Part shown: positions 5,540-23,136 of the stretch, one piece after another
How positions within the stretch are numbered: position 1 is the stretch's first letter
Layout: each line of letters starts with the position of its first letter
NCBI GenBank assembly: GCA_946186575.1
Contig: CAMHNO010000002.1
Coordinates: forward strand, 126,664-150,663
Length of the DNA stretch: 24,000 bases
Reading direction: 5' to 3'
From: an uncultured Prevotellaceae bacterium
GTDB taxonomy: Bacteria > Bacteroidota > Bacteroidia > Bacteroidales > Muribaculaceae
The notes under the pieces: model-generated
Told to the model about the DNA's origin: nothing
Database searches by the model: none
The model's input: the letters and a program-made list of their open reading frames with translations, nothing else
Translations under genes and position numbers: made by a program

Positions 5540-6949
5540 ATGAAAACATTAAAGATTCTCTCTCTTGCATTGTGCATAGCCGCCACTGGCAGCGCTATGG
5601 CACAAAGCAAGGCACAAGGCGGCATCGACGCCGCAATGATGCGACAAATCACACAACAGGCAGCAACAACAAGCAATGCCGCACTGAGCAATGCCATGGC
5701 ATCTAACTCAATCGACGACCTGGCACGCAACTACCGCAACAATAAAGTGACCGACACACACTTCAGCGTTGAGACACCAAAGCAGAGCATTCACAACCAG
5801 CGCTCGAGTGGACGATGCTGGATGTACTCCAGCTTCAACGTGATGCGAGCCAACTTCGCACGCCGCCACAACGACACGCTACAGGTGGAATACTCTCACG
5901 ACTATCTGTTCTTCTGGGACCAGCTCGAGAAGGCCAACCTCATGCTGCAGGGTGTGATTGATTGTGCCGACAAGCCACTCGACGACCAGCGAGTGCAGTT
6001 TTTCTTCCACCACCCAATCAACGACGGAGGCACATTTTGCGGCGCAGCCGACCTCGCCGAGAAATATGGCCTCGTGCCTGTCGAAGTGCAGCCCGAGACC
6101 TACAGCGCCGAGCGCACATCGCGCATGAGCCAGCTGCTCTCCTCCAAGCTGCGTGAGCAAGGACTGGAACTGCGCAAGATGGTTGCTGCAGGCAAGTCGG
6201 GCGCAGCCATCAAGCAACGCAAGACCGAGATGCTGGCCGAAATCTACCGCATGCTATCGCTGTCGCTTGGAGAGCCCATCAAGTCGTTCACCTACGCCTT
6301 CAAGAACAAAGATGGCAAGACCGTGACACCAGCTCGCACCTACACACCACAAGAATTCTATCGCGAAACTCAAGGCGGACCCATCAACGGAACCTTCATC
6401 ATGGCAATGAACGACCCCAGGCGAGAATACTACAAGACCTATGAGGTGGAATGGGACCGTCACACCTACGACGGCCACAACTGGTGCTACATCAACCTGC
6501 CCATGGAGGACATAGCACAGATGGCCATCGCTTCGCTCCAAGACTCTACCAAGCTCTACTCGAGCTACGATGTGGGCAAGCAGCTCAACCGCGACAACGG
6601 CTATCTCTCGCTCGACAACTTCGACTACGGCACACTCTTTGGCACCAAATTCGGCATGAACAAAGCCGACCGCATCGCAACCTTCGACAGTGGCTCAACT
6701 CACGCTATGACGCTCACCGCAGTCGACCTTGATGCCAACGGCAAGCCCATCAAGTGGAAAGTGGAGAACTCGTGGGGAGCCGACAGCGGACACAAGGGCT
6801 ACATCATCATGACCAACGATTGGTTCAACGAGTACGCCTTCCGCCTGGTGGTCGACAAGAAATACGTGCCCGAGCGCATCCTCAAGGCAAGCCAGCAAAA
6901 ACCCATCATGGTAATGCCCGAGGACCCACTCTTCCAGGAAGACTGGTAA
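5540..6949 (+). CDS. pepC: C1-family cysteine aminopeptidase (aminopeptidase C / bleomycin hydrolase-like), exported
   Basis: Catalytic-Cys motif QRSSGRCWMYSSFNVMR and C-terminal block KVENSWGADSGHKGYIIM. N-terminal signal peptide MKTLKILSLALCIAATGSAMAQ. Confidence 0.9.
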   Translation: MKTLKILSLALCIAATGSAMAQSKAQGGIDAAMMRQITQQAATTSNAALSNAMASNSIDDLARNYRNNKVTDTHFSVETPKQSIHNQRSSGRCWMYSSFNVMRANFARRHNDTLQVEYSHDYLFFWDQLEKANLMLQGVIDCADKPLDDQRVQFFFHHPINDGGTFCGAADLAEKYGLVPVEVQPETYSAERTSRMSQLLSSKLREQGLELRKMVAAGKSGAAIKQRKTEMLAEIYRMLSLSLGEPIKSFTYAFKNKDGKTVTPARTYTPQEFYRETQGGPINGTFIMAMNDPRREYYKTYEVEWDRHTYDGHNWCYINLPMEDIAQMAIASLQDSTKLYSSYDVGKQLNRDNGYLSLDNFDYGTLFGTKFGMNKADRIATFDSGSTHAMTLTAVDLDANGKPIKWKVENSWGADSGHKGYIIMTNDWFNEYAFRLVVDKKYVPERILKASQQKPIMVMPEDPLFQEDW

Positions 6950-6957
6950 CTGAGAGG

Positions 6958-6968
6958 CGAGTGTTCGA
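6958..6968. repeat. Solitary copy of the octamer-array motif (CGAGTGTTCGA), downstream of the four-helix-bundle gene
   Basis: Exact 11-bp match to 7832-7842 inside the octamer array. The context gCGAGTGT TCGATTta reads as about two array units. Confidence 0.7.
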
Positions 6969-6986
6969 TTTACTACAATTCGCGCG

Positions 6987-7736
6987 TTACAAGGCTTGGC
7001 GTGTACCTTGGCAATTGGGATAATCCGAGCAACCCCAAAATTGCTTGCCAACTTTAGTGCCACGTTTTATAGTGCGTTTAATCATAGGCTTGCCACATAG
7101 TGGACACTGTGGTGACCCTTGCTCAACAGATTGCAGGGTTTGCGCCGCCAGTCGTTCTTTGCTCAAGCCCTCAGTAAATCCACCATTGAGCTTAAAGTCA
7201 TCAAGCTGCCGCAACATCATCTTCTGCAACATGGTGATGTTGCGGTTTATTAGCTGCATGATTGAATTTACACACACAACCTGATTATCGCTTTCTACCC
7301 ATGGTGCAAAGCGCTTGCGTTGTGACTGCACATGCACCCATGCATCGTGCTCAATATCACGGCCATAATGAGGTTGTTCAAGTTGAATGCTTTGAAAAGC
7401 CCGGTAATTCTCGCTATCTCTTGTCCAAGGCTCTATATTGTAAGTGAGAGAAAAAGCCATGTAATCACTTAGCAATTCGCTCAAGGTTGCTCTTGCCACG
7501 TCAGTGAGCCGCATCTCAGTCTCTCGACTGGTCTGACGGCGCGAACTTCCCTCAGCAATATTGGCATGTGCACTTCGCGCGGCCATTACCATTTGGTCAT
7601 AAAGGCGCCCATGTGGGTCGTTGTCTTTGTTGAGATAACGATGGCAAAAACTAATGGTTGCCTGGTGGATTATGTGCGACATCACCCATGCATCAAGGTA
7701 ATAATAGCCCTTGATGGATTTAATATCAACAGCCAC
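6987..7736 (-). CDS. Four-helix-bundle protein (23S rRNA IVS protein / Avd-like family) with suffix domain and C-terminal topoisomerase-type C4 zinc ribbon
   Basis: Family signature DQMVMAARSAHANIAEGSSRRQTSRETEMRLTDVARATLSELLSDY. The middle region ends in NGGFTEGLSKERL (suffix-domain-like). The C-terminus CPLCGKPMIKRTIKRGTKVGKQFWGCSDYPNCQGT matches the Topo I C4 finger pattern. The start is a GTG at 7736. An ATG at 7682 is an alternative. Confidence 0.85.
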   Translation of the reverse strand: MAVDIKSIKGYYYLDAWVMSHIIHQATISFCHRYLNKDNDPHGRLYDQMVMAARSAHANIAEGSSRRQTSRETEMRLTDVARATLSELLSDYMAFSLTYNIEPWTRDSENYRAFQSIQLEQPHYGRDIEHDAWVHVQSQRKRFAPWVESDNQVVCVNSIMQLINRNITMLQKMMLRQLDDFKLNGGFTEGLSKERLAAQTLQSVEQGSPQCPLCGKPMIKRTIKRGTKVGKQFWGCSDYPNCQGTRQAL

Positions 7737-7782
7737 TATTTTTGTTACTATTTTATTGTTGTTTTTGTTATTTTTACGATAG

Positions 7783-7852
7783 TCGATTGTTCGATTATTC
7801 GATTGTTCGATTATTCGATTGTTCGATTATTCGAGTGTTCGAGCATTCGAGG
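7783..7852. repeat. Octamer tandem array: (TCGATTGT TCGATTAT)x3, then TCGAGTGT TCGAGCAT TCGAGG
   Basis: Read directly from the sequence. There are 8.75 units with a TCGA core every 8 bp. The array fills most of the space between the pyrH stop (7869) and the four-helix-bundle gene start (7736). Confidence 0.95.
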
Positions 7853-7868
7853 TTTTTGGGGAGGTTTG

Positions 7869-8582
7869 TTAAGGCGTCACCACGGTGCCTATGGGCTCGC
7901 CAGTGATCACCTTCTTGAGGTTGCCCACCACGTCCATGTTGAACACATGTATGGGCAGGTTGTTCTCCTTTGCCATCACAGTGGCAGTCATGTCCATCAC
8001 CTTGAGGCCGCGCGCAATAATCTCGTCGTAGGTGATGGTGTCGAACTTCGTAGCCGTGGGATCCTTCTCGGGGTCGGCAGTGTAGATGCCGTCCACACGA
8101 GTGCCCTTGAGCATGACATCGGCCTCAACCTCAATGCCGCGCAGGGTGCTGCCGGTGTCGGTGGTGAAGAAGGGGTTGCCAGTGCCGCACGACATGATGG
8201 CCACCTTGCCCTGGTTCATTGCGTCGATGGCGCGCCACTTGGTGTAATGCTCGCCCACTGGAGTCATGGCAATAGCGGTGAACACCTGTGCTGGCTGACC
8301 CTTGGCCTCGAGGGCCGACGAGAGAGCGAGCGAGTTGATAACTGTGGCAAGCATGCCCATTTGGTCGCCCTTCACGCGGTCGAAGCCACTGGCAGCTCCT
8401 GCCAGACCGCGAAAGATGTTGCCGCCGCCAATCACGATTGCCACCTGAACACCAGCTTCAACTATCTCCTTGATTTGAGTGGCATAGTCGTCGACGCGCT
8501 TTGGGTCGATGCCGTAGCCTTGTGCTCCCATCAGCGACTCGCCGCTGAGCTTGAGCAAAATGCGCTTGTATTTCGTTTCCAT
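7869..8582 (-). CDS. pyrH: UMP kinase
   Basis: METKYKRILLKLSGESLMG..., 237 aa, with a typical PyrH amino-acid kinase fold sequence throughout. Confidence 0.95.
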   Translation of the reverse strand: METKYKRILLKLSGESLMGAQGYGIDPKRVDDYATQIKEIVEAGVQVAIVIGGGNIFRGLAGAASGFDRVKGDQMGMLATVINSLALSSALEAKGQPAQVFTAIAMTPVGEHYTKWRAIDAMNQGKVAIMSCGTGNPFFTTDTGSTLRGIEVEADVMLKGTRVDGIYTADPEKDPTATKFDTITYDEIIARGLKVMDMTATVMAKENNLPIHVFNMDVVGNLKKVITGEPIGTVVTP

Positions 8583-17940: not shown

Positions 17941-18150
17941 TTAAGTGTAAAGTGTTAAGTGTTAAGTAGTAAGTAGCAAGTAGCAAGTAGCAAGTAGTAA
18001 GGAGTAAGGAGCAAGTAGCAAGTAGCAAGTAGTAAGGAGTAAGGAGTAAGGAGTAAGGAGTAAGTAGCAAGTAGTAAGTAGCAAGTAGTAAGTAGTAAGT
18101 AGTAAGTAGTAAGTAGCAAGTAGTAAGGAGTAAGGAGTAAGGAGTAAGGA
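17941..18150. repeat. Heptamer tandem array, 30 units (4 head units TTAAGTG-like, then GTAAGTA / GCAAGTA / GTAAGGA)
   Basis: Parsed unit by unit from the sequence with no phase breaks over 210 bp. The plus strand carries TAA/TAG in all frames. The minus strand has no stop in any frame. Confidence 0.97.
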
Positions 18151-18180
18151 GAATTGGTCGCATGAAGACCGCTTGCGGCC

Positions 18181-18264
18181 TTACTTAACACTTACTTCAT
18201 ACTTCATACTTCTTCCTTCTTCCTTCTTACTTCTTACTTCTTACTTCATACTTCTTCCTTCTTA
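18181..18264. repeat. Heptamer tandem array, 12 units (CTTCTTA / CTTCATA / CTTCTTC), inverted relative to 17941-18150
   Basis: The reverse complements GTAAGAA / GTATGAA / GGAAGAA are 5-6 of 7 identical to the left-array units. An exact 13-bp inverted repeat TAAGTGTTAAGTA occurs at 17956-17968 and 18182-18194. The last unit contains the radical SAM stop codon. Confidence 0.95.
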
Positions 18265-22572: not shown

Positions 22573-23115
22573 ATGAAACCAATTTTCTTGATAGGATACA
22601 TGGGATGCGGCAAGACCACACTGGGCAAACCGCTTGCCAACCTGCTGGGGTGGCGCTTTGTCGACCTCGACATCTACATCGAGCAGCAGTGCGGCATGAC
22701 CGCCAAGCAGGTTTTCACCACTCACGGCGAGGCCCACTTCCGCAAGCTGGAGCGGGAGGCGCTCGAACAAGTTGTAGCAATGGGAGGCAACACAATAGTG
22801 GCATGTGGCGGAGGCACTCCGCTGCAGCCTGGCAACATGGAGCTCATGAACCGAGTGGGCATCACCGTGTGGCTGCAGACCAGCGTCGAACGCATAGCAT
22901 CGCGCCTGGTGCTCCCCGACCAACGCAGCAAGCGCCCACTGCTTAGCCACATGAGCGACGAGCAGATAAAGCAATCGGTAATCGACGGCATAGAGGCGCG
23001 CTCGCCATTCTACGAGCAGGCTCAGCTGCGCTTCGACTCCACACACCTTGAGAGCGAGGATCAAATAGCTGCTACCGCCCGCCGGCTTGCCCAACTATTA
23101 ACTATTAACTATTAA
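22573..23115 (+). CDS. aroK: Shikimate kinase
   Basis: MKPIFLIGYMGCGKTTLGKPLA (P-loop), FRKLEREAL, VACGGG. The ATG at 22573 is preferred over the upstream track start. Confidence 0.92.
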   Translation: MKPIFLIGYMGCGKTTLGKPLANLLGWRFVDLDIYIEQQCGMTAKQVFTTHGEAHFRKLEREALEQVVAMGGNTIVACGGGTPLQPGNMELMNRVGITVWLQTSVERIASRLVLPDQRSKRPLLSHMSDEQIKQSVIDGIEARSPFYEQAQLRFDSTHLESEDQIAATARRLAQLLTINY

Positions 23116-23136
23116 CTCTTAACTCTTATCTAACAT
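23095..23136. repeat. Heptamer tandem array CTATTAA x3, CTCTTAA, CTCTTAT, then a degenerate CTAACAT
   Basis: Read directly from the sequence. The array begins inside the last codons of aroK and supplies its stop codon (TAA at 23113-23115). Confidence 0.9.

Follow-up and report, generated by a model that had tools for sequence, protein, structure and literature searches.

The 23S rRNA of Coxiella burnetii has an intervening sequence (IVS) with three tandem GACAGAT heptamers before the S23p open reading frame (ORF) inside a 28-bp stem; heptamer number varies between strains, mobility has been proposed, and the ORF is reported to be decaying (PMC4990558). Two questions have stayed with such elements and with short repeats for about 30 years, namely what the proteins of rRNA intervening sequences (PF05635, including Avd, a factor of diversity-generating retroelements) do outside retroelements, and why the intergenic gaps of some bacteria are filled with 7–10-bp units in tandem. 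The locus described here ties this unexplained protein family to unexplained bacterial short tandem repeats. It lies in the window, a stretch of 24,000 nt (positions 126,664–150,663 of contig CAMHNO010000002.1, from a 2.7-Mb genome assembly that is 95% complete), and comprises a four-helix-bundle protein gene (6987–7736, minus strand) and a neighboring octamer array (7783–7852, minus strand). We consider it rather probable that the locus is a cassette of ~0.9 kb, made up of a cognate repeat array and the gene of a three-module protein, and that the repeat is recognized by the protein.

The ORF-bearing 23S rRNA IVS is the nearest printed parallel that we found. The IVS elements of Coxiella and Leptospira share with the window element a PF05635/TIGR02436 protein and number-variable tandem short repeats directly upstream of its gene, and they are likewise small, sporadic, proposed to be mobile and free of a recombinase. 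In contrast, the window element lies between the protein genes pepC and pyrH rather than in a 23S rRNA helix, its repeat is an octamer with a palindromic TCGA core, and it has no stem of terminal inverted repeats. Its protein has double the length and includes a suffix helix and a zinc ribbon, its gene is under strong purifying selection, and the genome also contains scattered solo arrays of the cognate type. The accessory variability determinant (Avd) of diversity-generating retroelements forms basic, nucleic-acid-binding pentamers. It has a homologous four-helix-bundle fold (PDB 4DWL), and its relation to PF05635 has been noted (PMC10053308). However, the reverse transcriptase profile PF00078 had no match in the 95%-complete assembly, nothing of the kind stands among the neighboring genes of the window, no template/variable repeat pair was found by the locus and PADLOC gave no match, so that a role like that of Avd is unsupported.

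In a REPtron, repetitive extragenic palindromic (REP) sequences are laid out with the gene of a REP-associated tyrosine transposase (RAYT). The window locus resembles this arrangement in that a gene present in single copy has a short repeat at its flanks, further copies of which are scattered between genes, with the repeat type pairing with the gene variant; it differs in that the protein has no recognizable catalytic domain, the units are tandem and of 7–10 bp instead of palindromic hairpin doublets, and mobilization is only predicted. TRAP is a ring protein that reads tandem RNA repeats. Together with ParR/parC of plasmid R1 (PMC2241845) and iteron or centromere arrays, in which tandem repeats adjoin the gene of a cooperatively binding protein, it offers a functional analogy only, as there is no relation in sequence or fold and no partner ATPase, and binding in the window is only predicted. 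Regulator binding has been proposed for long simple sequence repeats (LSSRs) and heptanucleotide short tandemly repeated repetitive (STRR) sequences of bacteria (Mrazek 2007, via PMC4679880) and for TAACTGA arrays (PMC4692102). These arrays are intergenic, consist of 5–11-nt tandem units near start or stop codons, and are patchily distributed and length-variable; the window array is, in the same way, an intergenic tandem array, longer than expected by chance and length-polymorphic. The difference is that no cognate protein is named for them, whereas the arrays described here go with one particular gene family. The texts of PMC4679880 and PMC4692102 make no mention of S23, four helix or intervening sequence, and a full-text search of the literature on PF05635/TIGR02436, the family name and the suffix domain returned no title or abstract on repeat arrays.

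The array was delimited by Tandem Repeats Finder and by direct reading of the sequence. For 7783–7850 the program gave 8.5 copies at period 8 and 4.2 copies (94% matches) at period 16, and reading resolved three perfect 16-bp doubles, TCGATTGT/TCGATTAT, followed by the diverged units TCGAGTGT and TCGAGCAT and by TCGAGG, with TCGA each 8 bp. Read in gene orientation, the unit is nnTCGAAy. A gap of 16 bp separates the array from the pyrH stop codon (7869–7871), and one of 46 bp separates it from position 7736, the GTG start of the four-helix-bundle gene. Its placement between the two, described in an earlier reading made from the sequence only, was confirmed, as were the other points observed in that reading.

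Comparison with related loci carries most of the argument. All 19 relatives of at least 58% identity (clade A) have octamer arrays with the TCGA core (TCGA/8), which in 17 of the 19 end 11–83 nt before the start codon; the 4-nt spacers vary by locus, and unit orientation flips within and between arrays. In relatives of 42–49% identity (clade B), the arrays either have period 10 and a core that is TCATGA or resembles GATTAATC, or have period 9 and the core CTCGAG; most of them begin at the stop codon. An array lies within 150 bp of the gene in 65 of 77 loci, against 2.6% of random windows in the same loci. When the four repeat classes (TCGA/8, GATTAATC-like/10, TCGAG/9 and CATGA/10) were placed on the protein tree, seven changes of class were needed, compared with a mean of 32.6 and a minimum of 26 after shuffling. 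This concordance of class and clade does not come from the insertion sites, since the contexts are almost all different. The array belongs to the gene and not to the site, the two being inherited and relocated together. In the window locus and its 80 relatives, one protein clade is matched cleanly and testably to a single repeat class, with TCGA at 8-bp intervals, and sister clades use other palindromic cores.

The gene itself has moved widely. Five other species of the genus have orthologs of 73–84% identity, whose contigs are not those of pyrH and whose contexts are unrelated, and all seven genus loci (six of clade A and one 46% homolog) have different flanks on both sides; in contrast, the upstream flank of pyrH is common to 25 of 28 of those genus genomes. 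Across Muribaculaceae and Bacteroidales metagenome-assembled genomes (MAGs), the contexts at 81 loci number 68 on the upstream and 62 on the downstream side, without any recurrent partner gene. Neither the cassette nor its immediate surroundings contain a recombinase, transposase or reverse transcriptase, and such genes do not recur at the 81 loci. From these comparisons, the four-helix-bundle gene is a small, sporadically placed and movable cassette, which agrees with the sporadic, mobile-like distribution that had been expected of a member of this family. One clade-B cassette (L087:1–60), which has arrays of period 10 on each side, begins right after the apparent 3′ end of a tRNA gene.

Arrays of the same class also occur away from the gene, chiefly where a genome has the gene or a remnant of it. 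In the window genome (G000), five places have at least three TCGA in 8-bp register, against none or one for periods 5–7 and 9–11. Four of them are solo intergenic arrays of 4–5 units (C9:24137, C12:29852, C26:34488 and C74:103). The sequence-only reading had suggested searching the genome for further arrays flanking four-helix-bundle genes; the arrays were there, but no such gene was found near the four. G020 is 99% complete with one clade-A gene, and 17 arrays of at least five units were counted in it, two flanking the gene and 15 elsewhere, between housekeeping genes such as clpB, isopropylmalate/isocitrate dehydrogenase and sigma-70 genes. On its contig C12 (L132:1505–1564 and 2709–2768), two 8-unit arrays bracket the isopropylmalate/isocitrate dehydrogenase gene between clpB and a sigma-70 gene, which indicates that arms can enclose housekeeping genes. 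In a genus sample of 41 genomes, TCGA/8 arrays were present in 9 of 10 genomes with the long-form gene and in 5 of 31 without it (Fisher 5e-5); in a family sample of 151 genomes, the corresponding figures for a clade-A-like gene were 4 of 4 and 5 of 147 (Fisher 6e-6). Nine of the 10 clade-B-only genomes of the family sample have no TCGA/8 arrays, G043 being the exception.

All six PF05635-like genes of the window genome adjoin arrays of 7–10-bp period. The genome contains 115 strong arrays of period 6–11, most of them without such a gene, and over ~3% of the genome a gene edge would be as near to one of these strong arrays. The two short-form genes (C13:6343–6636 and C56:3049–3342) lie between inverted heptamer arrays belonging to the TAAGTAG class. 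Genome-wide this class counts 54 members, among them 17963–18264 and 23093–23132 of the window. Of two smaller classes, one of decamers (17 members) and one of CTAGA nonamers (four members), each includes the arrays beside one further paralog. Array classes and paralogs of the genome match roughly.

An opposing explanation is that the arrays are ordinary, fast-slipping intergenic microsatellites unrelated to the protein, with the genes landing or surviving preferentially in repeat-rich spacers. The many strong arrays without a four-helix-bundle gene speak for it, as do the different mini-arrays borne by the spacers after the pepC stop codon in three species, the genomes with many TCGA/8 arrays and no gene, and the hypervariability of the array. 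We nevertheless consider it unlikely, because repeat class and period follow the protein clade over more than 60 unrelated contexts, TCGA/8 arrays are limited to few genomes and strongly enriched where the cognate gene is present, and all six paralogs adjoin arrays.

The pepC–pyrH site was found both empty and filled. In the congener G001 (locus L019), a gene-free gap of ~96 bp separates the convergent pepC and pyrH and contains a mini-array of TAGGAnnnnn x4 and a terminator hairpin, with no copy of the TCGA motif. Only one other genome, a rumen MAG (L046), has the same filled site, with a 92% identical protein and the same pyrH-side boundary; its spacer of ~215 bp between the gene and pepC is without any TCGA unit and thus without a downstream copy. 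On the pyrH side, the homology of G001, the window and L046 extends to a GGTTTTT run, which in the window abuts the last array unit in the junction between array and pyrH stop (7853–7868); this run is taken as the cassette boundary because the homology with G001 and L046 ends there. A terminator hairpin directly follows pyrH in G014, G015 and G010, and in L046 it follows the four-helix-bundle gene; the cassette therefore lies between the pyrH stop codon and the pyrH terminator. The window lacks the stretch downstream of the gene that bears this hairpin in L046, and pyrH has no terminator of its own before the cassette. The 37-bp window spacer after pepC shares only ~56% identity with the G001 spacer beyond the stop codon. 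By amino-acid identity G001 is closer to the window than L046 is, whereas synonymous divergence (dS) places L046 closest.

The spacer after the pepC stop codon bears a different mini-array in each of these species, namely TAGGAnnnnn x4 in G001 (L019:1402–1440), TGTTAAG-like heptamers in L046 (L046:3890–3950) and TCGA-type units in the window, and it seems to be array-prone whichever class is present. A related strain in run X6 has ~200 letters in place of 43 between pepC and the gene, like L046.

Downstream of the gene, the 11-mer CGAGTGTTCGA occurs at 6958–6968 as an exact copy of 7832–7842, in direct and not inverted orientation. It has three copies in the 2.7-Mb assembly, the third (C8:54653) inside unrelated sequence. 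Among random 37-bp windows of the genome, 58 of 400,000 (1.45e-4) have, on one strand or the other, an 11-mer in common with the array, and the corresponding rates are 7e-4 for 10-mers and 3.5e-3 for 9-mers; at this frequency the match is beyond chance, as the sequence-only reading had estimated. Its context reads as about two array units, gCGAGTGT TCGATTTA in plus-strand reading, which form a mini-array at 6957–6972 (minus strand) in the same orientation as the upstream array. The preferred interpretation is a copy, two units long, of the repeat that belongs to the cassette, being a relic or seed of a second arm; this copy arose after the split from L046.

The exact word on either side of the gene would also suit a transposon-like insertion, in which a target was duplicated, slippage enlarged one copy into the array, and the 11-mer represents the other. 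As the second half of a target-site duplication the 11-mer is ruled out, the motif being absent from the G001 empty site and from the downstream spacer of the filled L046 site. A single TCGAGTGT-type unit at an empty site was not seen in G001, orthologs at unrelated sites have the same array type, and there is no transposase in or beside the cassette and no recurring partner among the 81 loci. Contradicted by the empty site, L046 and the relocated orthologs, such an origin is very improbable. The earlier proposal of a small cassette between direct repeats thus holds in part. A small sporadic insert is supported by the gene-free junction of G001; the flanking copies are not its insertion scar, given L046. 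The accompanying expectations, an empty site with one motif copy and an array grown from a duplicated target, failed, the first since the gene-free junction is without the motif, and the second on the same junction, on L046 and on the recurrence of the array type at unrelated sites.

Second arms are a wider feature of these cassettes. About half of the clade-A loci have one after the stop codon, in either orientation, so that two arms are a variable cassette feature rather than an insertion scar. A further explanation builds on such arms: in an IVS-like RNA element, the flanking repeats would pair into a stem cut by RNase III and free the gene mRNA from the pyrH transcript. The same family does occur in rRNA IVSs, with the ORF within the 28-bp stem and tandem heptamers before it (PMC4990558), heptamer arrays in inverted orientation enclose both short-form genes, and some clade-A relatives are two-armed. 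Here, however, there is no second arm beyond the direct 11-mer of about two units, the arms of L053 and L059 are direct repeats, and 11 of the 19 clade-A loci have the upstream array only. The array RNA, moreover, folds weakly, with a minimum free energy of −16.9 kcal/mol, an essentially unpaired centroid and a z of −3.1 that stems from 4-bp TCGA stems. We regard this explanation as quite improbable. At one clade-B locus (L070:2880–2980), TTATGTCGC x3 and GCGACATAA x3 face each other within the upstream array, and this inverted pair makes a hairpin wholly on one side of the gene.

The cassette gene encodes 249 amino acids in three modules, defined from the ORF list, profile matches and an AlphaFold model. 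A four-helix bundle (residues ~10–147, DNA 7296–7709) is followed by a long suffix helix region (residues 152–205, DNA 7122–7283) and by a C4 zinc ribbon of the topoisomerase I type (residues 209–247, DNA 6996–7112). TIGR02436 was matched with 27.6 bits, above its cut-off of 24, and PF05635 (23S_rRNA_IVP) with 27.2 bits, below its cut-off of 33.8; because of the latter score, the protein is placed as a divergent member of the TIGR02436/PF05635 family. The four-helix-bundle suffix domain TIGR04258 scored 27.9 bits over residues 154–198, under its cut-off of 40, which is a resemblance only, and Zn_ribbon_Top1 (PF01396) scored 36 bits over residues 210–247, above its cut-off of 32. The cysteines C211, C214, C236 and C242 are invariant in 44 homologs, and the invariant columns also include an ANIAEG stretch. 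The AlphaFold model, built with 44 homologs, has a mean predicted local distance difference test (pLDDT) score of 86.4 and helices at 15–34, 44–63, 71–98 and 128–147. Its best PDB matches in Foldseek were two PF05635 proteins, 2GSC (probability 1.00, template modeling (TM) score 0.76 on the target) and 2RLD of the S23 ribosomal protein family, and the modeled fold is a four-helix bundle like those of the solved family members. Profiles, AlphaFold and Foldseek detected the four-helix bundle and the zinc ribbon only, and no HUH/Y1 transposase fold.

A ratio of non-synonymous to synonymous divergence (dN/dS) of 0.066 against the L046 ortholog shows strong purifying selection, so that the protein is functional and its gene not decaying. 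The protein is likely to bind nucleic acid; this binding is predicted from the Top1-type ribbon and the relationship to Avd (PMC10053308). As to a defense or phage role, PADLOC was without a match and PHROG gave only a weak one, to the zinc ribbon. Two alignment columns shift with the repeat class, column 177 in the suffix helix (Q, R or I/L; DNA ~7206–7208) and column 228 in the zinc ribbon (K, M/G or Q; DNA ~7053–7055). They are candidate specificity positions, each change being a single event on the tree.

Considering all the above, we propose a plausible model of the cassette. The protein, probably an oligomer, would recognize the repeat with one unit per subunit, reading the palindromic TCGA core that recurs once per 8 nt on DNA or on a transcript. 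As no terminator stands between them, the array must be co-transcribed with pyrH, so that binding at the RNA level is as possible as at the DNA level; the palindromic cores suggest that recognition is independent of strand and orientation. The array beside the gene might be the protein's own binding lattice for autoregulation, co-mobilization or both, the solo arrays might be further targets of the protein, and the downstream 11-mer would be a two-unit repeat copy left from, or seeding, a second arm. It seems to be the gene's physical connection with one of its arrays that counts.

Several observations weigh against this model. The link between protein and repeat is correlative. The association of gene and array is strong but imperfect, and the kin compared are not independent. 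TCGA/8 matches are numerous in genomes without an assembled long-form gene (75 in G175, 64 in G090 and 19 in G057), and G004 and G043 have many TCGA/8 arrays and only clade-B-like genes. G153 has 47 lattice matches and only an 80-residue remnant, an N-terminal piece (L136, C21:41831–42067) 82% identical to the window protein. The clades differ in where the array lies: clade A has it upstream, and in clade B it mostly follows directly on the stop codon. This argues against a single simple operator model. No independent convergence of residues and repeat type was found, since both TCGAG/9 groups are best placed as one clade; a constrained tree joining them is 59 log-likelihood units better (approximately unbiased test, p-AU 0.95). 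No mechanism of movement is visible for the cassette. Finally, gain and loss at the pepC–pyrH site cannot be polarized, because dS is 0.86–1.6, and thus saturated, in all species pairs compared. As to the arrays without a gene, either the array outlives the gene, another paralog serves, or the repeat-flanked gene is lost from bins; in G153, which still has its matches, arrays seem to have outlived the gene.

A lattice with a TCGA core every 8 bp might also be a methylation or restriction feature unrelated to the neighboring gene. TCGA is a common methyltransferase site. The palindromic core at regular spacing is all that recommends this explanation. One specificity would be insufficient for the arrays of the related proteins, with cores GATTAATC, TCATGA and CTCGAG at periods 9–10, and the genome has 15,678 TCGA sites, to which the array adds little. 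We find it scarcely credible.

Beyond this locus, the recognition of the repeat by a cognate protein may be one case of a wider relation, which we put forward as a possible but doubtful generalization. Four-helix-bundle proteins (IVS-protein- or Avd-like) could be the missing trans partners of the unexplained 7–10-bp arrays of the LSSR, STRR and TAACTGA types, each paralog recognizing one class, adjoining one array of that class and seeding, spreading or maintaining the others of the class between genes throughout the genome, in a REP/RAYT-like manner without a known enzyme. The zinc-ribbon protein and TCGA/8 would be one such pair.

The array is hypervariable and changes faster than its flanks. 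At the same site, it has 10 units in the window and seven in L046. A sheep-gut metagenome contig that spans the whole stretch carries 11 substitutions, five of them within the 70-bp array (binomial p 1e-4), three of these five being T>G at unit position 5; one further substitution lies in the downstream 11-mer (6959 G>A). The same contig (run X2) is also 8 letters shorter near 7750–7790, the exact place not being fixed, and contigs of three other metagenomes break between 7740 and 7830. Unit number, which the first reading had suggested examining for polymorphism in reads, differs between species; between strains the array varies in assembler contigs, with the 8-letter length difference in one of them. 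Arrays of this kind break metagenome assemblies, by which the gene may drop out of bins. In public gut metagenomes from several studies, including sheep gut, the region 6700–8100 of the window occurs at ~99% identity.

Between the array and the GTG start lies a leader (7737–7782, minus strand) that is A-rich on the gene strand and contains a 9-bp two-copy repeat (7756–7775). Sequence reading found no Bacteroidetes-type TAnnTTTG promoter box on the gene strand between array and start; in the relative L051, TAnnTTTG boxes lie upstream of its array. On the plus strand, the last array units and the GTTTTTGGGG run (7830–7851) score as a terminator-like hairpin of nine pairs, located exactly where G001 has the T-tail of its convergent terminator, and the array may replace the lost hairpin for pepC transcripts.

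The upstream neighbor on the same strand is pyrH, the UMP kinase gene (7869–8582, minus strand; TIGR02075, 322 bits), and the convergent neighbor is a pepC-like C1 peptidase gene (5540–6949, plus strand; Peptidase_C1_2, 431.7 bits), with a stop-to-stop gap of 37 bp to the cassette gene. The cassette gene is AT-richer than both, as had been noticed from hand counts, with a GC content of 46.8% overall and 46.8% at third codon positions (GC3), against 55.2 and 72.8% in pepC and 58.0 and 75.6% in pyrH. Among 1846 long ORFs of the genome (GC 49.9%), it stands at the 10th percentile of GC and the 5th of GC3, and is thus modestly atypical. Cultured carriers of relatives are Prevotella sp. DNF00663 (63% identity) and Palleniella intestinalis (46%). 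Elsewhere in the window, the heptamer arrays at 17963–18148 and 18191–18264 read TAAGTAG x26.6 facing CTTACTT x10.6, an inverted pair that resembles a gene bracket without a gene, and 23093–23132 reads AACTATT x5.7.

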